Position numbers and translations under genes: made by a program. From Patescibacteria group bacterium (GTDB taxonomy: Bacteria; Patescibacteriota; Patescibacteriia; UBA9934; GWF2-40-263), in NCBI GenBank assembly GCA_041661745.1, contig JBAZTR010000002.1, positions 4,368 to 68,367 of the forward strand: a stretch of 64,000 nucleotides of DNA, given 5' to 3'. The notes beneath the pieces are model-generated. The model had not been told where the DNA came from. It did no database searches and saw nothing but the letters and a program-made list of their open reading frames with translations. Within the stretch, counting starts at the first letter, position 1. Each line of letters begins with the position of its first letter. Below, one piece after another: positions 16,301-50,971 of this stretch.

Positions 16301-19300
16301 CATAATCTTCGTCCGATCCTTCACTCAAGCAAAGAGATGAACAACCGTCGTCATCGGTGGTATTGCCATCATCACAATCTTCGCCGGTTCCGATTTCACC
16401 ATCGCCACAAGCTGAAGGAATAGAGTAAGACGATGACGAACCTTCGTTTAGGCAAGACGACGAACACCCATCGCCATCGGTGGTGTTGCCGTCATCGCAA
16501 TCTTCGCCGTGTTCCGGGTCACTGCCATTGCCGCAGACACCATAAAAATTATCAATCGTTTCAGAACCTTCATTCAGACAATTGGCTGAGCAGTTATAAG
16601 CGGCTTTATCTTCACCGTAATCACACTCTTCCCCGCCAATCATATTGCTGTGAGCCACGAGACCGTCACCACAATCATATCCCAGGGATGAAGCCCCTTC
16701 GTTCAAACAAATAGACGAACAACCGTCATTGTTTGAAGTATTACCTAATTCGTCGCATTCCTCACCGATTCCTACTGCGCCATCACCGCAAACCGAAGGA
16801 GTACTGTAACTTCCACCGGAACCCAAACGAAGACAAGAAGAAGAACAGCCTTCCGTACCATCACAATCCTCCCCAAAGTCAATTTCACCATCACCACAAA
16901 CAGCTATCGGAGTTTCGGTTCCAATATGCAAACAATCTAAAGAACAACCATCGGCTAAATTATTAGAAATCATGATTGCCCCGCCACCAACCAAGTCGGC
17001 AATATTAGCCGTTGGCAATTCATCAGTTTCATCAATGGCCACCCAGGTTTCCCAGGTGTAGCCAGCGGCTATTAGTCGTTGGCCTTCGGCTGAACAGGCA
17101 TCGGGTGAGCCGTACGGCACAGCCGTAAAACGTTGAATTGTCCCAACCCGAGTGGCTGTGGCTTCGTTTGGTTCAACTTCTACTCGATCGACAGTACAAG
17201 CCTCAGCTTTAGTCGTAAAGGTCCATGACAAATCACCGTACCAAGCCAGGTCACCGGCCGCTTCACTTAACAACGAACCGCTCTCTGATTCAGCTTCACC
17301 AGAAATGATCACGCGATAAGAAGTATCAATCAACAAATTTCCGGGCGGAACAATTGTCAGTATGTCAGTTTCGTCATCGTAACTCGAGGCGACTGAACTA
17401 ATTTCTACTAGTTCATCAGGGGCACAACCTGGATCCTCGCAACTAAACAATCTAACTATTTGTTCACCACCACTATCCGTTCCGGAAAAAGTTCCGGCGG
17501 CCATTGGAATATTAAAAGTTGCGCCGATTTCCGCATCCAGGCAAGCTTCGGTACAACTCGGCCAGTAATCAGTAATTTTTGGATCAGTAAAGCTGATGGT
17601 TAAATATCCGTCATCACTGACACTGTAACCATCGGGCTGAGCATTAATCGCAACCGGGCCATCGGTGCCGGTTTCTTCCTCGGCTATAACCATCGCCCCA
17701 CAGCCGACAACACTACCAACACTTGCCTTACTCGAATCGCTGGAAGAAAAATTCCAGGTGTAAGGTGAACAGTCTAAAACCGTGCACTGATATTCCGAAC
17801 TGGTCGGCGCAGCACTATAAGCAATTTCCTCGTTTTGTATGTTTGAAGTCTTTTCGCCTGGCGAAACAATAACTCCACCAATTTCACAAGCGTCTCCAGA
17901 AGCCGCAGTTTCAAATTCCCAAATAACGTCTTCAAGCATTACTAAACCTTCGATACTTTGTATTGTTCCGACCTCACCACCATAAACGGTCACGCGATAT
18001 CGAGTATCGGCGGCCCAATCAGACGCGGGTATCCAGGTAAAACCACTTTCATTATAAGAAGTCGGCGAACTTTCCATTTCCACAGCCGCGGTGTCCGAAC
18101 AGGTTTTATCAGTACACTGCTCTACCAAAAAGCCGGCAGTTGAATATGAAAGCGCGTCCATGTCTTCGGTGAAACTGACACTTAAAGCCGCGTTAGAACA
18201 AATCTTTGTTCCGCCATCCCAACCTTCCCAAGGTGTCGGGGAAACCCATGTTTCATCACACTCAATGCGAACATCTGGCGCTTCAGGAATATCACCGGTG
18301 GAAAAATAATAGGCGTAATGTGAAACAGTCTCAGGGTCAACGCATTCCGTTGCTGAACAAGCCCCACTAGCACAACAAGTTTCACCCGAGCCGCAAGAAA
18401 AATCAACGTTACAAACGCCAACAGTAAAATTAACTTTGTTGGATTTCTGAGCATCACTGTCAATTACAATAACCGGACCACTGTTTGTGTCAGCAGGAAC
18501 AACCACGCCGGTTGTTTCACCAATTGCTCCACTCGTCCAATCATCAGTTGTGGCTGTTTGATCATTGAAAAAAGAAATCGAGCCGACCGTGGTACCAAAC
18601 CCCTCACCATATAAAGTAACCGCTGTGCCGACCGGACCGGAATTGGGAACAATGGCACAAAATCCGGGGGCCGCTTCGCCAGTAGTCACAACAAAGTTAA
18701 CTGCTTCGGATTTTAAACCATCTTCGGCCCGCTGTATGTATAAATCATGAGTAATCGCATCAACCGAATTGGTGTTGCTGTATTTCGCGGGAACTTTAAT
18801 AATAATTTCAGTATCACTCCAAAAACTGTCTTCGCATTCATCGGGAAAATTTGTGTCGCCTAAAGCTTCGTAATCTGTGCTTTGGCTAACAAACCGAACC
18901 GTTCCTTCGCTGGTACCAAAACCAGAACCATAAATGGTTAAATATTGGCCAATCGGGCCTTCTTCAGGATCAACCTGACTAATTACCGGAAGTTCCTCCT
19001 CAGTAACCGAAGTGGTAACAAATTGGAGTTCGTTAGAGCCCTCACGAGCATCGCCACTGCCGGTAAACAATTGAATATCGAAAATTCCGGCATCCAATAA
19101 CGGCGACACGGCCCCGAAAGATGTTGTTGACCAATCGCTGTAACTGGCCGCTTCATAAGAATCAAAATAAAGCGTAGCGTCAGTGCTTGATTCCCCAAGG
19201 TTAATACCGTGAAGTGTAACGGCAGAGCCAGCCTCGCCGCTTTCCGGATCAATAGAACAAAGGCCGGGGCGAACTGTTTCATTAACTTCAAAGTCGCTGA

Positions 19301-20870
19301 TATAAGAACCGTTTTCGTCGTTGGTTTGATCGTATTTGCCATCGGCAGCAATTAATTTAATCGGGCCGCTTTCGGCTTCGTCTTTTAATTGAATAATCAC
19401 TTGGCTATCACTCCAAGCTTCCACGCATTCCTCGCTGGAGTAAGCCGAATGACTAACTTCGGTCGTTGTCCCTAGAAAGACAACACTGCCCGGCGCTTCA
19501 CCAAAGCCTTGGCCAGAAATAGTAATTAAGTTACCAGGAGCGCCATCACCGGGCGAGACGGCTTCGATTTCCACTTCCTCTTCGCAAACACCATCAACAC
19601 ATGATCCGGAAGAGCAATCAGAGCTGTCAGTACATTCTTGGTTTTCGCAAGCGCCGCAATAAGAATCCGCCGATGAACTGCCACCACAATCAATCCCACT
19701 TTCACTTTCGTCTTGTACACCATTGTGGCACGAAGCGGCCCGTAACATCACGCTAATTTCCGCATCAACATCGTTACCGGCGCAATCAGAACCCTCGGCC
19801 AAAATACTATGGTCATCGTTGGTAAAATATCCGGCCGTGTCCCATTCGCTGTCAAAATAACCATCACCTTCGATGTCATTAACTGTGCTATTAATTCCGG
19901 TATCAATATAGAAATCAACCGAGGCTACCCCAGTATCATCAACCGCATATGCTTGAAGCATAGCGGCTTCGTCAGCGTAAACTGACTCGCCATCATCAGG
20001 CGCCGTAATTTCAAAAACCGTTGGCGCGGCTAAATCAAACCCCGTGCCCGTGGTAAAAGTAAATTCACACGGGTAAGCGGTTGAGCATTGAAGATCATAA
20101 CCACTGGAGCTTTGCAAAGCCGAACTGATGGTAATGTTATAGGTCGTTTCCGCTTCAAAACAATTAACTGAATAATCATCTTCGGCAAAACAGATTGCCT
20201 CAGGAGTAAAAGTAAACGAAGTGGCGCTGGCCGTGGTTGAGCGTCCAACCGCGGCAAAAGTGCCAGCCACTTCTTCCCCACCCTTGCTGATAGAAATGCC
20301 GGTGCCATCAACAACATCTTCCGTGGCTACGCGCTGACTGAAAATAAAACGCAACTCCAAATTTTGCAAACTTGAAGCGCAATCGGTATTAACACTGGTT
20401 AAAACAAAGGAATGGGCGTAATCAGGAATATCGCCACCGCCGCCCCCGCCGCCAACTTCAGTCCCGACGCCGCCACCAATTGAGCTAGTTAGTCTTGATA
20501 AAACAAATTGAGCGATGGTAAAAGAAGAAAGCATTATCAAAAGTCCGATAAGGCCGTTCTTTAAAACTTTTTTAGCTTTGGCTATTTTTTCTTCTTCACC
20601 ACCGGCCGTGACCCACAAAAAGCCAGCGTACAAAACAACAATTACCGCAACAATTCCCAAAAAGCCCAAAAAGGTTCGAATCGCTCGGGCAATCATTAAA
20701 ACCAGACTGCCGCTAGCCAAACCGGACGAGGCGGCAAAAGTTTCGCTATCGCCGCCAAACATTTGATTAGCGGTGAGAGTTTCGGCCAGAGCCGGAGTAA
20801 CAAACAAAAGGCCAAGGGCCACGCCTAATCCGACAATTATTAATAAAGATAAGAGACGATTTTTTTTCAC
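10305..20870 (-). CDS. giant (3521-aa) secreted or surface protein with a TrbC/VirB2-type pilin-like N-terminal membrane anchor, then IPT/TIG domains, tandem myxococcal Cys-rich repeats, a vWA domain and thrombospondin type-3 Ca-binding repeats
   Basis: Signal peptide ending ALA, then two TM helices around YAGFLWVTAGGEEEKIAKAKKVL and a poly-Gly linker. IPT-like GxGFG segments (ISGQGFGEAPGSVVF, TIYGSGFGTSEGTVRF, TLYGEGFGTTVGSISF). At least 10 CGDG-x-GE-CDDGN-x-DGCS-x-C repeats. vWA MIDAS DIVFVTDLSGSMS...SDGDP. DSDGDGVLDFNDNCPNDANEDQAD and DTDGDGIVDVEDNCP thrombospondin-3 repeats. Starts 4 nt downstream of the preceding gene. Confidence 0.8.
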   Translation of the reverse strand: MKKNRLLSLLIIVGLGVALGLLFVTPALAETLTANQMFGGDSETFAASSGLASGSLVLMIARAIRTFLGFLGIVAVIVVLYAGFLWVTAGGEEEKIAKAKKVLKNGLIGLLIMLSSFTIAQFVLSRLTSSIGGGVGTEVGGGGGGGDIPDYAHSFVLTSVNTDCASSLQNLELRFIFSQRVATEDVVDGTGISISKGGEEVAGTFAAVGRSTTASATSFTFTPEAICFAEDDYSVNCFEAETTYNITISSALQSSSGYDLQCSTAYPCEFTFTTGTGFDLAAPTVFEITAPDDGESVYADEAAMLQAYAVDDTGVASVDFYIDTGINSTVNDIEGDGYFDSEWDTAGYFTNDDHSILAEGSDCAGNDVDAEISVMLRAASCHNGVQDESESGIDCGGSSSADSYCGACENQECTDSSDCSSGSCVDGVCEEEVEIEAVSPGDGAPGNLITISGQGFGEAPGSVVFLGTTTEVSHSAYSSEECVEAWSDSQVIIQLKDEAESGPIKLIAADGKYDQTNDENGSYISDFEVNETVRPGLCSIDPESGEAGSAVTLHGINLGESSTDATLYFDSYEAASYSDWSTTSFGAVSPLLDAGIFDIQLFTGSGDAREGSNELQFVTTSVTEEELPVISQVDPEEGPIGQYLTIYGSGFGTSEGTVRFVSQSTDYEALGDTNFPDECEDSFWSDTEIIIKVPAKYSNTNSVDAITHDLYIQRAEDGLKSEAVNFVVTTGEAAPGFCAIVPNSGPVGTAVTLYGEGFGTTVGSISFFNDQTATTDDWTSGAIGETTGVVVPADTNSGPVIVIDSDAQKSNKVNFTVGVCNVDFSCGSGETCCASGACSATECVDPETVSHYAYYFSTGDIPEAPDVRIECDETWVSPTPWEGWDGGTKICSNAALSVSFTEDMDALSYSTAGFLVEQCTDKTCSDTAAVEMESSPTSYNESGFTWIPASDWAADTRYRVTVYGGEVGTIQSIEGLVMLEDVIWEFETAASGDACEIGGVIVSPGEKTSNIQNEEIAYSAAPTSSEYQCTVLDCSPYTWNFSSSDSSKASVGSVVGCGAMVIAEEETGTDGPVAINAQPDGYSVSDDGYLTISFTDPKITDYWPSCTEACLDAEIGATFNIPMAAGTFSGTDSGGEQIVRLFSCEDPGCAPDELVEISSVASSYDDETDILTIVPPGNLLIDTSYRVIISGEAESESGSLLSEAAGDLAWYGDLSWTFTTKAEACTVDRVEVEPNEATATRVGTIQRFTAVPYGSPDACSAEGQRLIAAGYTWETWVAIDETDELPTANIADLVGGGAIMISNNLADGCSLDCLHIGTETPIAVCGDGEIDFGEDCDGTEGCSSSCLRLGSGGSYSTPSVCGDGAVGIGEECDELGNTSNNDGCSSICLNEGASSLGYDCGDGLVAHSNMIGGEECDYGEDKAAYNCSANCLNEGSETIDNFYGVCGNGSDPEHGEDCDDGNTTDGDGCSSSCLNEGSSSSYSIPSACGDGEIGTGEDCDDGNTTDDDGCSSLCLSEGSDEDYGSICGDLDLETEAGEECEASGVTSVAPFTIAEISEEAPQEVLASGENIAITSIVATEGSSEAEGSATFTLECSCVSDYNCDTSGITYGCGDAACCFKRPAITDYYPVAGSTGVCRNTSVYMDFDQTMDAGGLNDSRALYLEFVSIGTGPTAIAVDETNCPTTYTTLLIARNDSGDNLFSRAWGWLAQNVLRILGVHAETFGACLVPVSYTLSELGDGSRIDLDFSQALESGTYNLVALGESAGDPLDNIVEGVVNTNGVAIYDGEIVNFEVGTEICALEMVSVEDTGKTELKDIFDEPSAYLFTESGEEHTLLAASYTLDGASAEEIQEIDDYSWTWGWGDESAETVIEVINVDDVTTTVTSSGVNGEELASASATVVSDGTIVTGSAELEANMCETLWPNPMTAAFPYLEDYSNFSFYYCRDQEGSDNLPELIEVEPPVTPSGVDILQERLFLIDGTSDAIGVRVFSNEDYLSPSAWFDVQGFSGSPSETTVDGYEAVQDGNTYYVSAANYSSSSVTNYPNIYVISYNEGAGEETDAIVEQVLENWKFNAGLNSSGDLEVSDINVCVSDGDYAVNAEGDYVSCVSNLDCISELSDASAFCDAEKGKLRRNMVRLTDARKIASDLAAYGEENRHCSVTKGQDCSEDDDCPGDDETCMAEVPEIQSGTFLSAFSTSTWPSWNAELGNALGTAIPTDPLNEFYCPGYTDQTYCWDSTAGTFSCSEDSNTYLYQSIGGEEYILSVQLEDSPGDYWAYPIDDDSTDNATVYAEFANAEDVANGFRIDSEFCNGSNLGTSTRCGDGVRGLSEICELGNTDTISCTYDSDDDGIDDNNGTMDAPCLSDCSDYMDESEAEAAGGSCSPYECGNGVLDPGETCDDGTNNGEYGYCDSDCGLDNAWYCGDGYLAGGEECDCGSTANWTDVHADTSSWSTINSCADANGIYDADAAHTCAYDCSYPGPSCGDGEVNSDESCDGNSEAWNGALCGAADNYATCTTDADCDETDCGTVYAACPISAVCDGGDRDNEECSEDADCTGGGDCKTSFEYQLSRYRTCDDGTGGACGWNTWSACLGGTQICGNGSVEGDEECDDGNDDNTDDCTAECKFNICGDDAVYAGHETCDDGLENGTVCSPDYSGTCNYCNVNCQYTTMSGSYCGDGVMQTGEFCDGSDLPKYCYLAGTNPDERGISTSACETDADCDTDNNYHCLEQVGVCNGGWRQASVCGDFICTLDGYYDYNGAPCVAGTGSSGYDCGIDSSGGTCMVADCGATCSATCPFSYSTTSVSIQTELAGATEETSADLYSYNSGDSPDTASIFLPACSVGTSLTADIDTTNIIPLDVDIVFVTDLSGSMSSTKIEATVNSISSAIQELFNAFDDYSNLQIGLVSFTNTLEDGSDHNNDGAITLADACITNSAGTTGLAWIDSDLTTNESQLIYGEYSVESYSTRTGGSTPLSAGLQCAANILEDSEADDQIIILLSDGDPNVLIDSSTYTSAYKYYEEIQDIRNAAIANGIEIYTAALMTTDALIGKMAHWSSDSCLENDPSETAYSNVADCSVTDDIEYAFSASSSDDLDEMYQQIADSIIGLTMTFTTDFAGETTLTSDEVFDGDDVVIPFPEGFGCDTENEWNIPFRISFSGEGTVNISDIKLSYCPASSASVGTGASSTIDSDGDGVLDFNDNCPNDANEDQADANLNEIGDVCEGAAGSVGSVGGGETLADTDGDGIVDVEDNCPSVVNVSQADADSDGIGDACDSGCGDGGIDTADGEYCDGGDFPKYCVNFDEDPSLRDIYALGSDTGCDAGYAENYGNILGICSGGTTGGYDFDSAVCYTSTSWSEAMCGSGADAGVCKANTCDGTCSTDTLSAYLPVCGDSIIDGGESCDETAFEDIYCVRGATNPASRVIKLASSCTDTATCDCSLFGPGYSAMAADDLGICDGGSRRLILPPVLYDYTNRLCVVGSSSASLYCGVTSGVWGTTAGTCVANTCGDDCDSSSIEDMFFP

Positions 20871-30372: not shown

Positions 30373-31467
30373 ATGTCTCTACAAGATCTGGGCTTTCTGT
30401 TGGCCTTGATACGCTTTCCAAAATTTGGAGCAGTTCGCCTCGCAAAATTGCGAGGATTTTTTCCCTCCATGGCCGCGGCCTTTGCGGCTGGCCAGAACGA
30501 ATTAATGGCCGCCGGAATCGATGCAACGACGGCCGAACAATTTATATCGCTTCGTCCAAAACTCTCGCCAGAACGAGAGTTGTTTTTAATTGATAAATAC
30601 AAAACCAAAGTTATTCTTAGAGATGATCTTGATTACCCACCGCTTCTAAAACAAATTCACGACCCGGCGGCCGCTTTATTTGTTCGTGGCACCTGGCCGG
30701 CCGTGGCCTTGCCAAGTTTGTCAGTGGTCGGTTCGCGCCAAGCCACACCGTATGCCGAGCGCGCCTCTGAAACCATCGTCAAACCACTCGCTCGAGCCGG
30801 ACTAGTTATTGTTTCCGGTTTAGCTCTTGGCACCGATGCTCTGGCTCATGAAGCTGCCCTTCAGGCCGGTGGAAAAACCATTGCCGTTCTTGGCTCGGGC
30901 ATCGACGATTATCATATCTTCCCTTCCTCTAATAGATATCTGGCACGAAAAATCATTGAAAACAACGGCGCGGTTATTTCTGAATATCCACCGGAAACCG
31001 AACCGCAAAAAATATTCTTTCCCATCAGAAATCGCATTATTGCCGGCATGTCACGCGGCACCATGGTTATCGAGGCTGGAATAAAATCAGGGGCGCTTAT
31101 TACGGCCAGAGCTGCTCTGGAAAACGGTCGTGAATTATTTGCCGTGCCCGGGCCCTTTCATTCGCCATTTTCCGAAGGCACCAACAATCTTATTAAAACT
31201 GGAGCGCATCCGGTGACTGAAGCTAATGATGTTCTTTTTGCCTTGGGTCTACGGTGCTTTGAGGAAAACAAAAAAAATAAAAAACCCGAAGCTGGCAGTC
31301 CGGCCGAAGCGGCCATCATTCAACTCTTAAGTGCCCAGCCAATTCACGTCGACGATTTGGCTCACGCCACTGGCAAAAATATTTCCGAAATCTCCCATTT
31401 ACTTACGCTAATGGAGATGAAAGGCACAGCCAGACATGTAGGAAATTTATACTACACAATTAACTAA
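30373..31467 (+). CDS. dprA: DNA processing protein DprA (Smf)
   Basis: Rossmann-like core GSRQATPYAERASETIVKPLARAGLVIVSGLALGTDALAHEAAL. Confidence 0.85.
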   Translation: MSLQDLGFLLALIRFPKFGAVRLAKLRGFFPSMAAAFAAGQNELMAAGIDATTAEQFISLRPKLSPERELFLIDKYKTKVILRDDLDYPPLLKQIHDPAAALFVRGTWPAVALPSLSVVGSRQATPYAERASETIVKPLARAGLVIVSGLALGTDALAHEAALQAGGKTIAVLGSGIDDYHIFPSSNRYLARKIIENNGAVISEYPPETEPQKIFFPIRNRIIAGMSRGTMVIEAGIKSGALITARAALENGRELFAVPGPFHSPFSEGTNNLIKTGAHPVTEANDVLFALGLRCFEENKKNKKPEAGSPAEAAIIQLLSAQPIHVDDLAHATGKNISEISHLLTLMEMKGTARHVGNLYYTIN

Positions 31468-31530
31468 ACCTTGACTAAACGTAAAAAATACCGCATTATC
31501 TTATCGTCTTAGTATTATTTCATTCGATCC

Positions 31531-31619
31531 GTTCAACTTGTTCAAGTGTTCAAAATGTTCACTGTCGACCGATCTACAAAACCAAAAATGAACAATTTGA
31601 ACATATGGACACTTGAACA
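31531..31619. repeat. near-palindromic array of 8-9-bp periodic GTTCAA/TGAACA motifs (copy A; 4 forward plus 3 inverted units)
   Basis: GTTCAActtGTTCAAgtGTTCAAaatGTTCAC ...26 nt... TGAACAattTGAACA..TTGAACA. The architecture and periodicity match copy B at 43484-43575. Confidence 0.6.
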
Positions 31620-31629
31620 AAAAAACAAC

Positions 31630-33873
31630 ATGTCATACTCATTAGTCATCGTCGAGTCTCCGGCGAAAGCAAAAACTATCTCCAAATACCTGGGCAGTAA
31701 ATACAAAGTACTGTCCTCTTTTGGTCATGTCCGCGATTTGCCACAAAAGGAAATTGGCGTGGATACCGAACACGGCTTTATCCCAAAGTACGTGGTTTCA
31801 CGCGATAAAATGAAGCAGGTTAAACTGCTTAAAGAAGGGGCAGCCAAGGCTGACGAAATTTTATTCGCAACTGATGAAGACCGTGAAGGAGAAGCTATTT
31901 CTTGGCACCTGGCCCAAATTCTTAAGGTTGACCCAGCCAAATTAAAACGCATTACTTTCCACGAAATTACCAAACGGGCCATTGATCACGCTATTGAAAA
32001 TCCACGTAATCTTGATTTGAATTTGGTTAACGCCCAACAAGCGCGCCGTATTCTTGACCGCTTGGTTGGTTACGAGCTATCGCCGTTTTTGTGGCGCAAG
32101 GTGCAGAAAGGTTTGTCCGCCGGCCGCGTGCAATCGGTCACCGTGCGCTTAGTAGTGGAACGCGAACGTGAACGTGAAGCTTTTAAGCCGCAGGATTTTT
32201 GGACTATCGACACTCTCTTTAATAAGGATCAGATTTCCTTCCCCGGCAAACTGCACGCTATTGGTGAAAAAAAGTTAGATAAACTTGGAATTGATTCTGA
32301 AGTCGAAGCGGAAAAAATTCTTGAAGCTTTAAAGAATGGAAAATACGAAGTCGCCGAGGTAACTAAAAAAACCGTTAAGCGTTCGCCGGCTCCGCCGTTT
32401 ACCACATCAACTCTACAACAAGAAGGCAATAACAAACTTGGTTTTGGTGCCAAGGAAACCATGATGCTCGCCCAAAAGCTTTATGAGGGGGTCACTCTGC
32501 CCGGCGAAGGTCAGGTTGCGCTTGTCACCTACATGCGTACCGATTCGACCAATCTTTCTGAACTTTTTATTAATGAAGCGCGAACTTTTATTTCCGACAA
32601 ATTCGGGGCTGATTATCTTTTGGATAAACCGCGAATTTTTAAAACAAAAGACAAAGGGGCACAAGAAGCGCACGAAGCTATTCGCCCAACCGATGCCTCA
32701 CGCACGCCTGATTCCATTAAAGACGCCTTGGATCGCGACTTGTGGAGGCTTTATGATCTAATCTGGCGCCGGGCGGTTGCCACCCAATTACCCGAAGCTA
32801 TCTTTGATTCCACTTCGGCCGACATTGCCACCGGTGAATATATTTTCCGCTCGACTGGCTCGACTATTAAATTTGACGGTTTCCTAAAAGTCTACGAAGA
32901 AAAACGAAAAGATTCTCTTTTGCCGGAGTTGGCCAAAGGCGATGCCGTGGCTTTGGAAAACCTGGAAAGTAAAAAGCACACCACTGAACCGCCGGCTCGT
33001 TACTCTGATGCTTCGCTGGTTAAGGCTTTGGAAGAACACGGCATTGGTCGCCCGTCCACTTACGCCCCAACTATTTCCACCATTTTGGAACGCGGCTATG
33101 TCGAACGTGACGAGGCTAAAAAATTAAAACCCAACCAAGTGGCCTACACAGTTACTGATCTCTTGGTCGAACACTTTCCAAATATTGTTGACTTGGCTTT
33201 CACGGCCAAAATGGAAAAAGATTTAGACCAAGTGGCCGAAGGTAAAGCCGAATGGGTCCCGGTCCTGCAAGAATTTTACGGCCCATTCCATGATAATTTA
33301 AAAGAAAAGGAAAAGTCAGTGGTTAAACTAAAGCCGGCCGACAAGCCGACCGATCAAGTCTGCGAAAAGTGCGGCAAGCCCATGGTTATTCGTGGTGGCC
33401 GCTTTGGCGATTTCTTGGCTTGCAGTGGTTTTCCGGAATGTAAAAACACCAAACCTTTAGCACAAAATGCCAACGGCGAGGCCGTGGCCGCTGAACCAGA
33501 GGTGGTGGAAGATCTTTGTCCAACCTGCGGCGCGGCCATGATTATGAAACGCGGTCGTTTTGGCCCATTCATCTCATGTTCCAAATATCCGGAATGTAAA
33601 ACCATTAAAAAAATCGAAAAGAAAACCGGGGTCAAATGTCCGCAATGTGGCGAAGGTGAGATTGTCGAAAAGAAAGGCCGGAGCGGCCGCCCGTTCTTCA
33701 GCTGCAACCGTTATCCTGATTGTAAATTCGCCTTGTGGCAAAAACCAACCGGTGAAAAATGTCCCACCTGCAGCAGTCTTATGACCTTTGCCGCCAAGGG
33801 TATGACCCAATGTTCCAACAAAGAATGCGGTTTCAAAAAGAGTTTGGAAACATCGGAAACACCAGAAACCTAA
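31630..33873 (+). CDS. topA: DNA topoisomerase I with C-terminal zinc-ribbon repeats
   Basis: MSYSLVIVESPAKAKTISKYLG Toprim start and several C-terminal CxxC...CxxC fingers. The ORF-track start at 31546 would run through the GTTCAA repeat array, so the internal Met at 31630 is preferred. Confidence 0.9.
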   Translation: MSYSLVIVESPAKAKTISKYLGSKYKVLSSFGHVRDLPQKEIGVDTEHGFIPKYVVSRDKMKQVKLLKEGAAKADEILFATDEDREGEAISWHLAQILKVDPAKLKRITFHEITKRAIDHAIENPRNLDLNLVNAQQARRILDRLVGYELSPFLWRKVQKGLSAGRVQSVTVRLVVEREREREAFKPQDFWTIDTLFNKDQISFPGKLHAIGEKKLDKLGIDSEVEAEKILEALKNGKYEVAEVTKKTVKRSPAPPFTTSTLQQEGNNKLGFGAKETMMLAQKLYEGVTLPGEGQVALVTYMRTDSTNLSELFINEARTFISDKFGADYLLDKPRIFKTKDKGAQEAHEAIRPTDASRTPDSIKDALDRDLWRLYDLIWRRAVATQLPEAIFDSTSADIATGEYIFRSTGSTIKFDGFLKVYEEKRKDSLLPELAKGDAVALENLESKKHTTEPPARYSDASLVKALEEHGIGRPSTYAPTISTILERGYVERDEAKKLKPNQVAYTVTDLLVEHFPNIVDLAFTAKMEKDLDQVAEGKAEWVPVLQEFYGPFHDNLKEKEKSVVKLKPADKPTDQVCEKCGKPMVIRGGRFGDFLACSGFPECKNTKPLAQNANGEAVAAEPEVVEDLCPTCGAAMIMKRGRFGPFISCSKYPECKTIKKIEKKTGVKCPQCGEGEIVEKKGRSGRPFFSCNRYPDCKFALWQKPTGEKCPTCSSLMTFAAKGMTQCSNKECGFKKSLETSETPET

Positions 33874-35535: not shown

Positions 35536-37059
35536 ATGTTGGAAACCGTCCGAACTTTTGAAGATCTGGAACAGCTCATTAAAAATAATTACATGAAGCC
35601 GGATTTAGAATTGGTCGAACGCGCCTACAGGCTAGCCGAAAAGGCCCACCAAGGTGAAATTCGCTTTTCCGGCCACCCTTTTATTACCCATCCCTTGGCC
35701 GTGGCTTACAAATTGGCGGAAATGGGTTTCCACACCAACATGGTTGTAGCCGGACTTCTGCACGACGTGGTCGAGGACACCGAGGTCACTCTTGATGATA
35801 TAAAAAAAGAATTCGGCGACGACGTGGCTGGTTTAGTAGAAGGGGTTACTAAACTGAAAAAAATAAAATATCAGGGTGTGGAACGATATGTCGAAAACAT
35901 GCGGCGCATGTTTATGGCCATGGCTTCTGATGTCAGAGTAATCTTTATAAAATTCGCCGATCGTTTACACAATCTTCAAACCCTTTACGCTCGACCCGGC
36001 CATAAGCAGGAAAGAATTGCTCGGGAAACCTTGGAAATTTATGCGCCCATTGCCAATCGTTTGGGGATGGGGGAAATAAAAGGCGAGTTAGAAGATTTGG
36101 CCTTCAAATATCTTTTCCCGAAAGAATATGATTGGATGGTTCAGATTATGGAAACCAAGGTGCGCGAAAAAGGCGCACAAATTTCCCGTCTGATTGACCG
36201 AGCCAGCAAAGTTTTGGGTGAAGCAAAAATTGAAACAAATCAAATTCACGGTCGGGTCAAGCGTCTTTATAGTTTATATAAAAAACTGCAGCGTTATAAT
36301 AATGACTTGGCCAAAATTCACGATTTGGTGGCGGTGCGCGTTATTGTAAAAGATGTCGAGGATTGTTACGCTGCCCTGGGCCTTGTTCATCAAGAATGGC
36401 ATCCGGTTCCAAACCGCATTAAAGACTATATTGCTCAACCAAAACCCAACGGTTATCGCTCTTTACACACAACGGTTTTTTGTGGCGATGGTGAAACAGC
36501 CGAATTCCAAATCCGTACCGAAGAAATGCACGAATTTGCCGAATATGGTATTGCCGCCCACTGGCGTTATAAAGAAACCGGTTTTTCACCGCCAAAAAAT
36601 CTGCGTTGGATGGAGGAAATGGTGGTAATTCAAAAGGCTCTAGAAGACAAAAAAGACTTTTTTGAACAAATGGAGGTTTTAAAAATTGATGTTTTTAAAG
36701 ACCATATTTTTGTTTTCACCCCGCAGGGCGATGTGATCGATTTACCAGAGGGGGCCACCCCGGTTGACTTTGCTTACGCTGTCCACACCGATGTCGGTCA
36801 CAAATGTGTCGCTGCTAAGGTCAACGATCAACTAGTTAATCTTGATTCAACCTTAAATTCCAACGATGTTGTAGAAATAATCACTGACAAAAATCGCCGC
36901 GGCCCTAACCCCGATTGGCTGAAATTCGTCAAAACCAATCACGCTCGGGAATTGGTTAGAGAGGCGGCAAAAAAAAACATGAGGTCGTGGCTTTCAGCCA
37001 TGATTTCCAAACCTGCTAATCCTGCCAAAAAAGAAAAGAAAGGCAAGAAAACAAAATAG
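35536..37059 (+). CDS. relA: RelA/SpoT-family (p)ppGpp synthetase/hydrolase, short form (HD, synthetase and TGS domains; no ACT domain)
   Basis: HD motif LLHDVVEDT, synthetase domain RVKRLYSLYKKL...VAVRVIV, TGS domain IFVFTPQGDVIDLPEGATPVDFAYAVHTDVGHKCVAAKVNDQLV. Confidence 0.85.
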   Translation: MLETVRTFEDLEQLIKNNYMKPDLELVERAYRLAEKAHQGEIRFSGHPFITHPLAVAYKLAEMGFHTNMVVAGLLHDVVEDTEVTLDDIKKEFGDDVAGLVEGVTKLKKIKYQGVERYVENMRRMFMAMASDVRVIFIKFADRLHNLQTLYARPGHKQERIARETLEIYAPIANRLGMGEIKGELEDLAFKYLFPKEYDWMVQIMETKVREKGAQISRLIDRASKVLGEAKIETNQIHGRVKRLYSLYKKLQRYNNDLAKIHDLVAVRVIVKDVEDCYAALGLVHQEWHPVPNRIKDYIAQPKPNGYRSLHTTVFCGDGETAEFQIRTEEMHEFAEYGIAAHWRYKETGFSPPKNLRWMEEMVVIQKALEDKKDFFEQMEVLKIDVFKDHIFVFTPQGDVIDLPEGATPVDFAYAVHTDVGHKCVAAKVNDQLVNLDSTLNSNDVVEIITDKNRRGPNPDWLKFVKTNHARELVREAAKKNMRSWLSAMISKPANPAKKEKKGKKTK

Positions 37060-37095
37060 GGAACAAAAATTTTTGTTCCCTATTTTGTTTTTATT
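37058..37095. terminator. bidirectional rho-independent terminator between convergent relA and parB
   Basis: Perfect palindrome AGGGAACAAAAATTTTTGTTCCCT flanked by A-runs and T-runs on both sides. Confidence 0.7.
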
Positions 37096-38729: not shown

Positions 38730-38810
38730 AAGCGGCTATATTATAGCAAAAGGGTTGAAGAGGTGGAAGAGGAAAAACAAAAACACCTGACAAACGAAGT
38801 CAGGTATTTT

Positions 38811-38887: not shown

Positions 38888-38916
38888 GTGTTTTATTGTT
38901 AACTCTGGTAGCGGGG

Positions 38917-38936
38917 GTGGGGATCTCACATTCCAT
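38917..38936 (-). repeat. 20-nt exact duplicate of the 3' end (T-loop half through CCA) of the tRNA-Met(CAT) gene at 39067-39143
   Basis: TGGTAGCGGGGGTGGGGATC is present at 38917-38936 and again at 39067-39086. The first copy lacks the rest of a tRNA. Confidence 0.6.
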
Positions 38937-39066: not shown

Positions 39067-39143
39067 TGGTAGCGGGGGTGGGGATCGAACCCACGACCTC
39101 GGGCTTATGAGTCCCACGCTCTAGCCAACTGAGCTACCCCGCC
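39067..39143 (-). tRNA. tRNA-Met elongator or tRNA-Ile2 (anticodon CAT)
   Basis: GGCGGGG acceptor stem, GCTC/GAGC D-stem, anticodon loop CTCATAA, T-arm GTGGG-TTCGATC-CCCAC, CCA encoded. Confidence 0.8.
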
Positions 39144-41945: not shown

Positions 41946-42907
41946 TCAAAAGTGTTATAAGTCCAAACCGTCAAAGCTTTTACATCGCGCAACCGACCGG
42001 CAGCTGAGTCAGAACCAAGAACAACAACAAAAATATCTTTGCCGCCGTCTTTTTGTGCTTCCACTCCAAGACAATATCCAGCCTCGGGCAGATAGCCGGT
42101 TTTTCCGCCGACAATCTTATAAGGCTCTTGATTTACAAAACCGGTTAAAAGTTCGTTGGTGTTTTCAAGCTGATAGTTATTCCCCTCAGCGTCGGTAATC
42201 GTGGCCGCCGCTTGTTCGGTGGCAAAACGAATGGTTTCATTTTGCAATGCCGCCCGCAACATGGCCACTAAATCCGGCGCCGTCGAACGATTTTCCGAAG
42301 ACAAACCAGTGGGATCGGCAAAAGTTGTTTGAAGCATACCGATCTCGGCCGCTTTTTCGTTCATGCGCGCCACGAAATCGCCTTCTGAAAAACCGGATAA
42401 ACGCGCCAGGGCGGCCGTCGCTGTGTTGTCCGAAGAAATTAAGCTGGCCAAAAGCAAATCTTTTATTGTTACTGTCTGACCGGCCGGAATATGTTGTTTA
42501 CCACCTTCACGATAATCACTTGATTCAATTATAGCCGTCGTGTTGAGATCAGGGTTTCCTGAAAGAAACACCAGAGCTGTCATAAGCTTGGTCATACTGC
42601 CAATGGAGCGTGCTTCTTCGGCGTTCTTTTCGTACAGAACTGTGCCGCTGGCTGAATCCATAACCAAAGCCGTGGTGGCCGCCGTAATCACTCCAATACT
42701 TTCCGGATTATTTTTTTTCGGAGCCCGAGCCACATCTACTGCCACCGGGAAACTCGGCCGCATTGCCGTCATGGCCGCACCAAAACTGGTTTCGATTGTT
42801 TCCGTGTCAGCGGCTTTTACGTATGACTCAACCACCCCGGCGTCAACCGGAAAAATTTGAACCAAACTGATGGCCAAAATAATTTCAACAAAAGCTTTAT
42901 AAATCAT
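41939..42907 (-). CDS. dacA: D-alanyl-D-alanine carboxypeptidase (peptidase S11, PBP5-like)
   Basis: Signal peptide, the SIGSMTKLMTALV (SxxK) and SSDN motifs, and KTG. Confidence 0.8.
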   Translation of the reverse strand: MIYKAFVEIILAISLVQIFPVDAGVVESYVKAADTETIETSFGAAMTAMRPSFPVAVDVARAPKKNNPESIGVITAATTALVMDSASGTVLYEKNAEEARSIGSMTKLMTALVFLSGNPDLNTTAIIESSDYREGGKQHIPAGQTVTIKDLLLASLISSDNTATAALARLSGFSEGDFVARMNEKAAEIGMLQTTFADPTGLSSENRSTAPDLVAMLRAALQNETIRFATEQAAATITDAEGNNYQLENTNELLTGFVNQEPYKIVGGKTGYLPEAGYCLGVEAQKDGGKDIFVVVLGSDSAAGRLRDVKALTVWTYNTFDW

Positions 42908-43476
42908 ACTATTTGTTTTTCGGCCGGAACAGTTTCTGCCCCGCTTAATTCCCGAATCATTTGATCAATTTGCGGATTGTTATTAAAGTTTTCAAATTCC
43001 GGCAATTCCGAAACATTTTTAACCCCAAGATGCCGCAAAAAATCCAAAGAAACCGAATAAACCGACTGTAATTTGGTTGAATCATCTTTTTCTTCAATCA
43101 ACCCGCGCATTAAAAGATTGCGCAAAATTAAAGTACAGTTAATGCCGCGAATCTGCTCAATTTCCGGCTTAGTCATGGGCCCACGGTAAGCAATAATCGT
43201 CAGCGTTTCCAGCGATGGTCGGGTTAATTCCCCACCCATATCTTCTTTGGCAAAAATCTTAACCGCCTCAGCCGCGGCTGGGTTAGTGGCCAGCTGTAGT
43301 TTGCCTTCTTGTTCCAAAAAATGAATGCCTGAACTTTCAACATTGCGAAGATTTTTAAGTTCTTCAATCGCTTCGCGCAAAGTTTCCTGATTAGTATTCA
43401 AGGCTTTAGCCAAAGTTTTAATATCAAGTGGTTTAGCCGCGGCAAAAAGTATGGCTTCAAGAGTGGTGGTTAACAT
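42904..43476 (-). CDS. scpB: segregation and condensation protein B
   Basis: Winged-helix repeats LEAILFAAAKPLDIKTLAKAL and IAYRGPMTKPEIEQIRG. Confidence 0.85.
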   Translation of the reverse strand: MLTTTLEAILFAAAKPLDIKTLAKALNTNQETLREAIEELKNLRNVESSGIHFLEQEGKLQLATNPAAAEAVKIFAKEDMGGELTRPSLETLTIIAYRGPMTKPEIEQIRGINCTLILRNLLMRGLIEEKDDSTKLQSVYSVSLDFLRHLGVKNVSELPEFENFNNNPQIDQMIRELSGAETVPAEKQIV

Positions 43477-43483
43477 ATTTTTG

Positions 43484-43575
43484 GTTCAAAATGTTCAATT
43501 GTTCAAATTGTTCACTTTTGGCTTACAGCTCGATCCGATAGTGAACAAGTTGAACAGGTTGAACAAATTGGACAA
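43484..43575. repeat. near-palindromic array of 8-9-bp periodic GTTCAA/TGAACA motifs (copy B; 4 forward plus 4 inverted units) filling the scpA-scpB intergenic space
   Basis: GTTCAAaatGTTCAAttGTTCAAattGTTCAC ...27 nt... TGAACAagtTGAACAggtTGAACAaatTGGACA. Confidence 0.6.
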
Positions 43576-44334
43576 TTATTCATTCCTAGTAAGCACGATT
43601 TCTTCAAAAGCTTCAGGTTGTTGAACTTTAATTATTCTTTGTTTTACTAATTCAAGCAGGGCTAAAAAACTCACCACCACTTCAGCCCGCGATTTGGCCG
43701 CGCCAACCACATCGGAAAACATAAACCTGGCCCGTTTCATTATTGCCTCGTGGATGTCGCGAATACGCTCCTCAACCGAGGCGACTCGTTCCAGCGAAGC
43801 TTGGCGTAAAGCGAAAAAAGGTTCCAGACGTTTAATCAGACCACGGAAAGCTTCGGCCAAAACATTTGTTGTCACGTTTTCCGGCGGACGAAAACCAACT
43901 TCAACCGGCAACGGCACATATGGCCGGGCAAACAACACTGCCCCGCCCAAATACATATTTTCCAATTTGCCGGCCACGTCCACAAAAGTGCGATAAAGTC
44001 TAAGCTGGGCGGCTAAATTGCTTTGCTCAACTGCCTCTTCAAGTGGGACAGGCAAAATGGAATTAGATTTAATCAGCAATAAACGCGCGGCCACGGTTAA
44101 AAAATCTGCCAGCTCTTCGGCTGGAACATTATTTTCGTTTATAAACTTAAGATAATCGCCAGTAACTTGGGCCAGCGACACCTCGGAAATCGGCAACTCC
44201 TCCTTTTCAATTAAAGTAAGCAGCAAATCAAGCGGACCGGAGAATTTTTCTATTGAAACTTCGTAAGACACAATTTTATGGACGCAGTCTTTGAACATCG
44301 CGAGGGAAAAGAGTGGCTTCTTTGATGTTATCAA
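43576..44334 (-). CDS. scpA: segregation and condensation protein A (kleisin)
   Basis: FSGPLDLLLTLIEKEEL N-terminal motif. The 5' end overlaps the 3' end of the upstream aaRS gene, so the true start may be the internal Met. Confidence 0.85.
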   Translation of the reverse strand: MITSKKPLFSLAMFKDCVHKIVSYEVSIEKFSGPLDLLLTLIEKEELPISEVSLAQVTGDYLKFINENNVPAEELADFLTVAARLLLIKSNSILPVPLEEAVEQSNLAAQLRLYRTFVDVAGKLENMYLGGAVLFARPYVPLPVEVGFRPPENVTTNVLAEAFRGLIKRLEPFFALRQASLERVASVEERIRDIHEAIMKRARFMFSDVVGAAKSRAEVVVSFLALLELVKQRIIKVQQPEAFEEIVLTRNE

Positions 44335-45586: not shown

Positions 45587-45600
45587 ATAAAATTTATTCT

Positions 45601-45637
45601 CCCTCTCCTTACGAAGGAGAGGGTTGGGGTGAGGTTA
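45601..45637. repeat. hairpin repeat element, copy 1 (CCCTCTCC-TTACGAA-GGAGAGGG-TTGGGGTGAGGTTA); its last TTA is the stop codon of asnS
   Basis: Perfect 8-bp stem with a 7-nt loop. Lies between two co-directional genes. Confidence 0.7.
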
Positions 45638-46936
45638 GGGGGTAATTCTGTTGATCAGTCTTGGAAATGGAATGGATTCGCGAACATGTTCAAGGCCGCA
45701 AATCCAGGTAACCAGACGTTCAAGACCAAAACCAAAACCAGAATGCGGCACTGAACCGTATTTGCGTAAATCCAGATACCATTGAAAAGCGTCGAGCGGC
45801 AGATTGTGTTCTTTAATGCGCGCCAACAATATTTCGTAATCATCTTCACGTTGACTGCCACCGATGATTTCGCCATAACCTTCCGGGGCAAGCAGGTCAG
45901 CACAAAGAGCACGCGACGGATCAGCTGGATCGCGCTTCATGTAAAAAGCTTTCACCTCGGCTGGATATTTTTCCACAAAAATCGGGCGATCGTATTGCTT
46001 GGTCAAAATCGTTTCATCATCACCGCCCAAATCATCCATTTCCCCAATGTCGCTACCGAGTTCGTGGAGTTTGGCCACGGCTTCGGCATGGGTCATACGG
46101 ACAAACGGGGCCTGAATTTTTTGCAATGGTTCAATGGATCGCTCCAAAACTTTCAACTCGTGCTGGTTCTTTTCCAAAACATCTTTGACAATGCGGCAAA
46201 CCAATTCTTCTTGAATCTTCAAGTTCTCGTCGTGCTCAACAAACGCTGCTTCGGCATCCATCATCCAAAATTCTGTCAGGTGACGGCGAGTCTTTGATTT
46301 TTCAGCGCGAAAAACCGGACCAAAATCAAAACACTTGCCCAAGCTCATCACTCCGGCTTCCAAATACAATTGACCAGACTGGGCCAGGTACGCTTTGCCA
46401 ACATCAAAATAATCCATTTCAAAAAGTTCCGTTGTTCCCTCGCAGGCATTCGGGGTCAAAATCGGCGTATCGAATTTTACAAAACCGGTTTCCTTAAAAT
46501 AATCGTAGGTGGCACGAATAATGGTGTCGCGAACGCGTTGAATGGCCCACTGCTTTTCAGCGCGGAGCCACAAATGACGATTGTCGAGCAAGAAATCCGG
46601 ACCGTGTTCTTTTTTACCAATTGGATAATCCTCGGGTGCGAGCTGAACAATTTCAACCAAAGTGCCATCAAGTTCAAAACCCGAAGGGGCGCGTGGTTCG
46701 GCCTTAACCGTGCCATGAATAATAACCGAAGATTCAATGCGAAGGGTGGTTAATTTTTCCCACTGTTCAGCCGGCAAACTGGCCGCCGAATAAACGATTT
46801 GTACTCGGCCGGTGCCATCGCGAAACTGCAAGAAAAAAATCTTACCGCTGGAGCGGAAGTTGTAGGCCCAACCCTTAAGTTCGACCTCCTGACCGACGTA
46901 TTTTTGGATCTCGGAAACAAATGTATATTTAGGCAT
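45635..46936 (-). CDS. asnS: asparaginyl-tRNA synthetase
   Basis: FRAEKSKTRRHLTEFWMMDAE motif 2 (AsnRS-like), GFGFGLERLV motif 3, and the ending FPRLINRITP. Confidence 0.8.
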   Translation of the reverse strand: MPKYTFVSEIQKYVGQEVELKGWAYNFRSSGKIFFLQFRDGTGRVQIVYSAASLPAEQWEKLTTLRIESSVIIHGTVKAEPRAPSGFELDGTLVEIVQLAPEDYPIGKKEHGPDFLLDNRHLWLRAEKQWAIQRVRDTIIRATYDYFKETGFVKFDTPILTPNACEGTTELFEMDYFDVGKAYLAQSGQLYLEAGVMSLGKCFDFGPVFRAEKSKTRRHLTEFWMMDAEAAFVEHDENLKIQEELVCRIVKDVLEKNQHELKVLERSIEPLQKIQAPFVRMTHAEAVAKLHELGSDIGEMDDLGGDDETILTKQYDRPIFVEKYPAEVKAFYMKRDPADPSRALCADLLAPEGYGEIIGGSQREDDYEILLARIKEHNLPLDAFQWYLDLRKYGSVPHSGFGFGLERLVTWICGLEHVRESIPFPRLINRITP

Positions 46937-49379: not shown

Positions 49380-49407
49380 ACAAAAAATGAAAAATATTTT
49401 TTATTTT

Positions 49408-49444
49408 CCCTCTCCTTACGAAGGAGAGGGTTAGGGTGAGGTTA
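49408..49444. repeat. hairpin repeat element, copy 2; its terminal TTA is the stop codon of map
   Basis: CCCTCTCCTTACGAAGGAGAGGGTTAGGGTGAGGTTA. Confidence 0.7.
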
Positions 49445-50215
49445 TGGCAATGGTGTAAGAATTTCGTGTCCGTTTTTTGTAATAACAATTGTTACTTCAA
49501 AATGCGCAGCAATGCTGTTATCTACGGTTATCGCTGTCCAACCATCATCAGCGGTTTGCACTTCACTATTGCCCATGGTAATCATCGGTTCAATTGCTAA
49601 ACACATACCGGGTTTAAGCGGGACACTTGGCTGCCGCGGGTAAGTGTAATTAGGCACATTAGGTGCTTCGTGCACAGCGTGGCCAACCCCATGGCCAACT
49701 AATGCCGTAACAATACCGAAGCCGTGCGGCTTAACATGTTTTTCCACGGCCGCACTAATGTCTCGAACATCGCCTTTAGGTTTAGCCGCAGCCACCCCGG
49801 CAAACAAGGCCTCACGGGTGACCCGCATTAATTCTTCGTCCTCAACGGAAATTTTTCCAACCGGCACGGTTACCGCCATATCAGTAAAGCGTCCTTGATA
49901 TTCGCAACCAATGTCTAAACTAACAATATCACCCTCTTTTAATTTAATTTTACGATTAGCTATGCCATGCACAACTTCGGGGCCAATGGAGATACAAAGG
50001 GTAGTCGGAAAGGCCGGTTCGTTTCTTGAACCACGATAACCTTTAAATGACGGCACCGCGCCATCCGCGCGCAAGGACTTCTCAGCAATTTCTTCCAACT
50101 CACTAATAAAAATCCCGGGGCGCACGGCCTTTGCCGCTGCGGCCAAAGCCCGCGAAAGAATTTTTCCACCCTCGCGCATGGCTTTAATGTCTTCATCGGA
50201 TTTTATTAGTGACAT
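49442..50215 (-). CDS. map: methionine aminopeptidase type I
   Basis: Pita-bread fold with its metal ligands (D..D..H..E..E pattern). Confidence 0.9.
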   Translation of the reverse strand: MSLIKSDEDIKAMREGGKILSRALAAAAKAVRPGIFISELEEIAEKSLRADGAVPSFKGYRGSRNEPAFPTTLCISIGPEVVHGIANRKIKLKEGDIVSLDIGCEYQGRFTDMAVTVPVGKISVEDEELMRVTREALFAGVAAAKPKGDVRDISAAVEKHVKPHGFGIVTALVGHGVGHAVHEAPNVPNYTYPRQPSVPLKPGMCLAIEPMITMGNSEVQTADDGWTAITVDNSIAAHFEVTIVITKNGHEILTPLP

Positions 50216-50893: not shown

Positions 50894-50925
50894 AAACTAA
50901 AAAACCGTCCATCATTGGACGGTTT
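50894..50925 (-). terminator. rho-independent terminator after secY
   Basis: AAACCGTCCAATGATGGACGGTTT followed by TTTT on the minus strand. An adk promoter candidate (TTAACC, 17-nt spacer, TATACT) follows. Confidence 0.55.
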
Positions 50926-50926
50926 T

Positions 50927-50971
50927 CCCCCTCTCCTTACAAAGGAGAGGGGGGTTCGGGGGGTGAGGTTA
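50927..50971. repeat. hairpin repeat element, copy 3; its terminal TTA is the stop codon of secY
   Basis: CCCCCTCTCCTTACAAAGGAGAGGGGGGTTCGGGGGGTGAGGTTA. Confidence 0.7.

Follow-up and report, generated by a model that had tools for sequence, protein, structure and literature searches.

An array of GTTCA units in the scpA-scpB spacer of a Patescibacteria genome is probably one copy of a small palindromic dispersed repeat

What separates scpA from scpB in a Patescibacteria genome, and does it belong to the condensin operon in which it lies? The question is raised by a 64,000-nucleotide stretch from a Patescibacteria group bacterium (contig JBAZTR010000002.1, positions 4,368 to 68,367 of the forward strand; hereafter, the window), where the two genes flank a periodic, palindromic array of GTTCA units. 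The first-pass annotation had proposed that the array was either a mobile miniature element or a dedicated binding array, and had suggested a link to chromosome organisation through ParB and ScpB. We conclude that the array is probably one copy of a non-coding palindromic repeat of about 95 bp, dispersed in the style of miniature inverted-repeat transposable elements (MITEs) or of repetitive extragenic palindromes (REP) and their paired forms (REPIN), and that such elements populate short gene spacers of Uhrbacteria and other Patescibacteria. The same DNA is present in the metagenome contig ena:ERZ27249449:k141_528855 (151.7 kb), window coordinates being contig coordinates minus 3496. The names attached to relatives of its ScpB and TopA are Candidatus Uhrbacteria or Patescibacteria, and the GC content of the window is 45.7%. 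Searches for copies and genes covered ~78 kb of the window genome, and the comparison set comprised ~200 kb from Uhrbacteria, in each case only a small part of the genome; loci other than the window are designated below by L and a number.

The element in the scpA-scpB spacer (copy B) is 93 bp long, with 33-bp inverted arms around a 26-nt core, and occupies positions 43483-43575. The asymmetric core (TTTTGG...CCGATAG) places it on the + strand, antisense to scpAB, and the family profile described below scores 84.5 bits on this strand and 54.6 bits on the other (nhmmer). The left arm (43483-43515, +) consists of GGTTCAA, TGTTCAA, TGTTCAA and TGTTCAC, with starts 9-8-9 bp apart and GTTCA at 43484, 43493, 43501 and 43510. 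It is followed by the core, TTTTGGCTTACAGCTCGATCCGATAG (43516-43541, +), in which TTTTGG and CCGAT(A/T)G are common to family members, and by the right arm (43542-43575, +), made of TGAACAA, TGAACAG, TGAACAA and TGGACAA with starts 9-9-9 bp apart (TGAAC at 43542, 43551 and 43560, and the variant TGGAC at 43569). Each arm contains three exact units and one variant. The initial description of four GTTCAA facing four TGAACA was accurate as to spacing, but the fourth units are GTTCAC and TGGAC, and the segment between the arms is 26 rather than 27 nt.

Copy B fills the 99-bp spacer (43477-43575). At one end it abuts the TAA stop codon (43576-43578) of scpA (PF02616, SMC_ScpA; 43576-44298, - strand), and at the other it ends 6 nt (43477-43482) from the start codon (43474-43476) of scpB (PF04079, SMC_ScpB; 42904-43476, - strand). 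The spacer is identical in an independent Logan assembly which, together with the sequence itself and the shuffling controls given next, establishes that the array is real.

A second copy (copy A) is located between dprA and topA, at 31529-31620 on the - strand (82.1 bits on that strand), in the 5' leader of topA (31630-33873, +; Toprim, Topoisom_bac and Zn_ribbon_Top1 domains; true start MSYSL), and stops 9 nt short of the ATG at 31630. Its units lie at 31531, 31540, 31548 and 31557, and then at 31589, 31598, 31606 (TGGAC) and 31614. The two copies have equal left-arm spacing and equal arm-to-arm distance, as had been noticed earlier, but the right arm of copy A is spaced 9-8-8. Moreover, because the central core is asymmetric, copy A aligns better with copy B when reverse-complemented (72 of 96 positions, or 75%) than in the orientation used originally (66 of 96, or 69%). 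The clustering of units is beyond chance. Each copy contains seven GTTCA or TGAAC words per 90 bp, while the maximum in 300 dinucleotide-preserving shuffles was four; A and B are the only such clusters in 64 kb, with no more than three or four of these words close together anywhere else. A candidate topA promoter, TTGACT-17-CATTAT (31471-31499, +), conserved in three relatives, lies upstream of copy A, which is therefore inside the transcribed leader; no σ70-like promoter was found inside copy B.

Additional copies came from JGI metagenomes, in which a search for the pattern of two inverted unit pairs returned at least 119 loci against few expected by chance. Among the matches listed, and with relatives fetched in addition, the family comprises at least eight copies in seven Patescibacteria contigs: A and B in the window, and one each in L149, L166, L196, L214, L227 and L255. 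All share one design, with arms of three to five units of 8-9 bp, (T)TGTTCA(A/C), facing each other across an asymmetric core of 18-26 nt with the common sequence TTTTGG-N-(C/T)CGA(T/C). The number of units per arm varies from 3+3 to 5+5, yet remains roughly symmetric. Against the family profile, the copies score 72-85 bits when read in the orientation of the core, and 46-59 bits when reversed. Pairwise identity between copies is 85% in unit columns, 60% in the other columns of the element and 32% in the flanks. It follows that homology extends through the entire element, with extra constraint on the units.

The sites occupied are unrelated. Apart from the scpA-scpB spacer and topA leader in the window, copies are found between parA and parB (L255, whose TopA is 82% identical to that of the window), upstream of rpsL (L227), in an SDR-HAD spacer (L214), in the spacer between murI and a 140-aa open reading frame (ORF; L149), and between convergent genes (L196). 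Relative to the gene downstream, the core points one way in six cases and the other way in three. Host contigs have a GC content of 37-46%, and the EF-G of L227 is 53% identical to that of the window over the C-terminal 116 residues. A hidden Markov model of the family revealed no copy beyond the eight in the ~200 kb of Uhrbacteria loci. A separate contig scan for four GTTCA units gave at least 120 loci; none among the matches listed had the two-arm design of the family, and those inspected were coding 9-bp tandem repeats. No element bearing the core was found in viral contigs, and blastn of the array against plasmid and phage collections revealed nothing similar.

Sites orthologous to those occupied in the window contain either nothing or a different element. 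The scpA-scpB junction was compared in seven relatives, with ScpB identity from 88% down to 62%, and no GTTCA units were found in any of them. Instead, L123 (88%) has a 170-nt composite of GGGATTTTT units; L265 and L266 (84%; L266 and the window were recovered from one sample) have a GTAAAA element with 4+4 units; L124 (81%) has GGAGTC units with an 8-bp period; L263 (73%) has GTAAAA units; and L264 (62%) has GAAGGC-type units. GGATTTT is also among the units of the periodic-arm palindromes in these spacers. In L125 (79%), there is no significant hairpin at the junction (z = -0.5), while the elements of the other relatives fold with z between -4.4 and -6.6. Thus a spacer of about 100 bp between scpA and scpB, which had been singled out as unusual, is so in general but not in this clade, where it is always 75-170 bp long and holds some periodic palindrome in seven of eight genomes. 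The flanks are homologous: L265 and L266 read ...GAATAA[GTAAAA element]CCAAAAATATG, and the window reads ...GAATAA[GTTCA element]CCAAAAATATG. Between stop codon and A-rich leader, one cassette has therefore cleanly taken the place of another.

Filled and empty states were observed at other junctions. Between parA and parB, the window genome has 4 bp, L123 has 5 bp and L264 has 10 bp; in L124, the spacer is 113 bp and contains a 105-bp palindrome of CGTAGAA units that extends exactly from stop to start, and in L255 it is 121 bp and contains the GTTCA element. Genes aspS and scpA overlap or abut in the window, L125 and L263, are separated by an ACGAAT element in L124, and by other palindromes in L123 and L264; the palindrome that fills this spacer in L123 is C/G-rich and similar to a second repeat family of the window described below. 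The topA promoter, TTGACn-17-CAT(C/T)AT, is conserved in four genomes, and the leader downstream of it is short and empty in L254; in the other three it contains the GTTCA element (window), an element of the TTTCCAAA type (L255) or an array of 14-bp units (L253). The point in the empty L254 leader that is equivalent to the insertion lies just 5' of the A-run before the ATG. Dispersal of this kind is not confined to GTTCA units. ACGAAT elements, whose termini are GGGG...CCCC, occupy three different loci, in L124, L255 and L125, with 4+4 or 6+6 units, and GTAAAA elements occupy five or more loci (L263, L265, L255 twice, L124 and L166). In L166, GGATTTT, GTAAAA and GTTCA arrays are found side by side, and several unrelated unit families occur within 17-22 kb of a single genome. 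The element is thus a dispersed palindromic repeat with insertion and replacement polymorphism.

Several features of the element are those of a MITE. It is short and non-coding, with terminal inverted repeats; its copies are dispersed at unrelated sites, two in the window and six in six other Patescibacteria contigs; and there is a filled/empty polymorphism at parA-parB and in the topA leader, which takes the form of replacement at scpA-scpB. Of the two initial proposals, a mobile element is well supported by these unrelated sites and by orthologous sites that are empty or hold other elements, while the units may themselves be bound by a protein, as discussed below.

Other observations weigh against a MITE- or REP-like origin. 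No target-site duplication was recognisable at three filled/empty pairs, where adjoining A/T runs could hide a duplication of 1-2 bp. No transposase, REP-associated tyrosine transposase (RAYT), autonomous partner insertion sequence (IS) or other candidate mover was found among Pfam calls in the window and the ~200 kb of the Uhrbacteria set. There are only two copies in 78 kb of the window genome and they are 75% identical, so there is no sign of recent activity and the copies are old. Occupation of the scpA-scpB junction in seven of eight genomes is above what random insertion predicts, and suggests selection or a strong hot spot. Finally, for one family to be conserved among distant Patescibacteria, it must either have spread horizontally or depend on a host factor that is itself conserved.

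The likeness to known systems is partial. Correia/NEMIS elements, which are MITEs of Neisseria, are also non-coding, about 100-150 bp long, with inverted arms around a central core; they insert into operons and intergenic spacers, where they are transcribed with their neighbours and form hairpins, and relatives differ in whether a site is filled or empty. Their arms, however, are a single 26-bp terminal inverted repeat and not 3-5 tandem units of 8-9 bp, and the TA duplication and parent IS were not found for the element studied here, whose observed copy number is low. The REP, BIME (bacterial interspersed mosaic element) and REPIN sequences of γ-proteobacteria are likewise extragenic palindromes inside operons that form mRNA hairpins and contain no classical transposase; as with our element, their sequences are species-specific and the spacers they occupy are often conserved. 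REP and REPIN sequences come in hundreds of copies and have an associated RAYT (Y1 transposase) gene. In contrast to them, the element has periodic arms and lacks a GTAG-type conserved 5' motif, no RAYT gene was seen in the ~78 kb of the window genome, and several unrelated unit families with one architecture coexist in a single genome. Mycobacterial interspersed repetitive units (MIRUs) are also short repeats that abut stop and start codons in intercistronic spacers, but they are 46-101-bp direct tandem repeats with small coupled ORFs, and not hairpin-forming inverted arms.

A MITE- or REP-like origin suggests how the present arrangement may have arisen. The units would be the sites at which a sequence-specific DNA-binding protein acts to copy or move the element, because they are more conserved than the rest of the element and by analogy with phage P4; they would resemble sub-terminal repeats of transposases or the TGTTCACC iterons to which the alpha protein of P4 binds. 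The element would have landed in a stop-start junction of ~10 nt (TAA...CCAAAAATATG), 5' of the A-rich scpB leader, which has no Shine-Dalgarno (SD) motif, and insertion presumably occurs, or is tolerated, just 5' of such a leader. The element would now be co-transcribed with scpAB as a long imperfect hairpin of about -30 kcal/mol, which probably breaks translational coupling and may buffer mRNA decay. REP hairpins inside E. coli operons, for example in the malE-malF spacer, act in this way and offer an established precedent. The position of the element in a condensin operon would be incidental to its origin.

Since random insertion alone does not explain the near-universal occupation of the scpA-scpB junction, an alternative has to be considered in which the junction, and perhaps the topA leader, needs a long stem-loop and any periodic-arm cassette serves, whatever its origin. 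The hairpin would uncouple the cistrons, protect mRNA ends or help initiation on leaders without SD motifs. We regard this as possible, though rather improbable. It agrees with the presence of a strong hairpin exactly at this junction in seven of eight genomes, built from five unrelated unit families; with the malE-malF precedent; with the elements stopping 6-16 nt before start codons, so that the A-rich leader is left free; and with the scarcity of SD motifs, which precede 4 of 50 ORFs of the window genome against a background of 5.5%. The folded sense RNA of copy B has an energy of -29.8 kcal/mol (z = -4.1), and that of copy A -27.3 kcal/mol (z = -3.4). For both copies, however, the antisense strand folds better than the sense strand, and a G.U asymmetry test of constraint at the RNA level was inconsistent, the mismatches of inner-stem pairs following no transcribed-strand rule. 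In addition, the spacer of L125 does without a significant hairpin, GTTCA copies point in either direction relative to the gene, the conservation of unit sequence exceeds what base-pairing requires, and parA-parB and aspS-scpA do well without any element in several genomes.

In another alternative, the arrays are operators: a host regulator that binds TGTTCAA would coat both arms just upstream of start codons and co-regulate topA and scpB as a DNA-topology regulon. Copies A and B do lie immediately upstream of topA and scpB in equal gene-relative orientation, their units are more conserved than the linkers, and the 8-9 bp period recalls ribbon-helix-helix proteins such as omega, MetJ and ParG, which bind cooperatively. 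We nevertheless consider a regulon unlikely. Relatives with TopA and ScpB that are 80-89% identical have no GTTCA units, or have other units, at both sites; L255 has its element at parA-parB instead, and other copies lie by rpsL, murI and HAD genes. The unit families that coexist within 17-22 kb of one genome would, furthermore, demand many dedicated regulators in a reduced genome, and genomes of the Patescibacteria type are small.

The closest analogue in sequence is found in phage P4, whose annotated ori type 1 repeats (in ori and crr) are TGTTCACC/GGTGAACA, with a 9-11 bp period and in direct and inverted groups. Direct comparison with these annotated features shows that the unit, TGTTCAC/A, is nearly the same, and P4 has two arrays some kilobases apart, as the window has A and B. 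The arrays could accordingly be an origin or cis-acting replication site for a primase-helicase similar to P4 alpha, for instance in an integrated or satellite replicon. Many GTTCA arrays of the metagenomes do adjoin genes of this sort: an AAA_25/DnaB-like helicase with a C-terminal helix-turn-helix was found at no fewer than 35 loci (at least 36 ORFs), in many cases no more than 60 bp from the array, a DUF6371 protein at a minimum of 17 loci, and a P4-alpha-like Toprim_3+DUF3987 protein at nine or more. Many GTTCA arrays outside Patescibacteria are probably origins of mobile replicons. As an explanation of the window arrays, however, a replication function is very unlikely. The Patescibacteria copies lie inside core operons, no such gene is near any of them, and tblastn with 67 array-associated helicase and primase proteins gave no match, and hence no cognate initiator, in the Patescibacteria loci examined. 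The conserved TTTTGG...CGAT core is absent from P4. The architecture with other units is also about as common in viral contigs (2, 0 and 5 matches, against 5 for GTTCA), so the resemblance may be one of generic design. We therefore treat P4 as an analogue for how the units may be read, and not as evidence that the element belongs to such a system.

Growth in place could also be imagined, in which a terminator-like palindrome was extended by tandem duplication of 8-9 bp in both arms, without any dispersal. The number of units per arm does vary in a roughly symmetric manner (3+3 to 5+5 for GTTCA, and 4+4 against 6+6 for ACGAAT), and there are many one-armed tandem arrays in relatives. As a sole explanation, slippage has very little probability, being contradicted by the occurrence of the same arms and asymmetric core at unrelated loci and by the 60% identity of non-unit columns against 32% in the flanks. 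Slippage may still account for the periodic nature of the arms and, after dispersal, for the altered number of units.

Least probable of all is the suggested tie to chromosome organisation, according to which ParB would bind the array as a parS-like centromere or a site of condensin loading: both parAB and scpAB lie close by, the inner units TTGTTCAC and GTGAACAA are one base short of parS half-sites and the window contains no canonical parS (TGTTNCACGTGNAACA, a 16-bp palindrome; four matches with up to three mismatches were found where 3.0 are expected), but the half-site-like units are 26 nt apart, a distance already counted against a simple parS in the first-pass annotation, four of eight copies have GTTCAT as the inner unit (the inner CAC being changed to T), copies lie far from par and scp genes at rpsL, murI and SDR-HAD, and relatives with near-identical gene order and 73-88% identical ScpB carry quite different units at the junction.

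Several other identities were rejected. A cluster of DnaA boxes, as in oriC, does not account for the arrays: TTATCCACA at up to one mismatch occurs 17 times against 13.5 expected, without clustering at the arrays, and GC skew is negative over the entire window, with no origin-type switch inside. Nor is the unit itself a DnaA box (TTGTTCAC against TTGTCCACA), as the lineage keeps a canonical GTGGATAACA box near tRNA/parA and the units differ between relatives. No intrinsic terminator with a GC-rich stem and a U tract was found in 43300-43800 or 31350-31750. In a search of the window against Rfam, only tRNAs passed, and the best match to the array (in E-value mode) reached 22 bits against a gathering threshold of 50 bits.

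Repeats of other kinds were noticed in the same sequences. A second dispersed family in the window has three copies (45593-45640, 49400-49447 and 50921-50968; 69-94% identity), each a GC-rich hairpin, CCCTCTCCTT-ACGA-AGGAGAGGG, followed by TTGGGGTGAGGTTAGGG. A one-armed 9-bp array, CCTCTTnnn x3, lies directly upstream of the parA extended -10 element TGCTATAAT (L001 about 14690-14735; window about 38740-38790); the same position is taken by ATCCCTT x5 in L124 (12739-12787) and by an array at about 15940-16010 in L123. Being conserved in position in three genomes, unlike the mobile cassettes, this may be an UP-like or regulator-binding array. Between convergent relA and parB, the window contains a perfect 44-bp palindrome, AAAACAAAATAGGGAACAAAAATTTTTGTTCCCTATTTTGTTTT (37048-37091), while L124 and L255 have arrays of GTAAAA units there, flanking a different terminator hairpin. 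Just past the window in the same genome (L251 5291-5388, or about window 68130-68230), a weaker periodic inverted array, with GTAGTAA / ACTACTC units, flanks a TGCTATTATAAT promoter where rpmB and a peptidase M50 gene diverge. Tandem arrays in L125, at 2196-2350 and 3745-3895 (GAGAGGCTT about 17 times with a 9-bp period, and GGTT about 25 times beside GAAAGGCTG units), show a general tendency to short-period tandem expansion in the lineage.

The 20-nt 3' end of a tRNA-Met (TGGTAGCGGGGGTGGGGATC, + strand) is exactly duplicated 161 bp apart, at 38906-38925 and 39067-39086. The stretch in between is GC-rich and structured, with a T-arm-like GGTTCGATTCCC, and ARAGORN finds no gene there; the duplication could be an att-type scar or a tRNA fragment. 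On the - strand at 10305-20870, a 3521-aa ORF with Big_5/TSP3-type repeats is the source of the direct-repeat families D1-D4; the next protein, of 624 aa, has Big_5 and T4SS_pilin domains. In an unrelated organism (L153 and L156; JGI Ga0194116/Ga0194130), GTTCAGAAT-armed palindromes alternate with a constant 20-nt segment in a satellite-like or CRISPR-like hairpin array.

We speculate, and hold it as no firmer than a tentative proposal, that Patescibacteria carry an undescribed class of interchangeable hairpin cassettes. It would comprise many families, each with its own unit of 8-9 bp (GTTCAA, GTAAAA, ACGAAT, GGATTTT, GGAGTC and others), kept at junctions such as scpA-scpB as insulators or as initiation platforms on mRNAs without SD motifs, and spread without a conventional transposase, for example by structure-directed copying of hairpins or by a modular protein that reads the units. 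We found no relevant description in published accounts of MITEs in the candidate phyla radiation, in the literature on intergenic inverted-repeat hairpins in Patescibacteria, or in that on bacterial MITEs with sub-terminal repeats.

The result removes a tempting but unsupported tie of the array to ParB or condensin loading. It also bears on annotation, since arrays of this kind, if they are what we propose, get misread as N-terminal extensions. The ENA call stretches TopA to 772 aa through copy A (31546-31629), and the JGI call lengthens the ScpB of L123 to 227 aa through its spacer element (L123 7644-7754), while relatives place the true starts at MSY... and ML..., respectively. If the proposed reading is correct, the long spacers in the tightly packed operons of these reduced genomes would in the main be traces left by a single architectural class of small palindromic elements, which would bear on how operons are expressed in organisms without Shine-Dalgarno signals. 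For the mobile DNA of uncultivated lineages, the periodic, iteron-like arms would imply a protein that reads their sequence.

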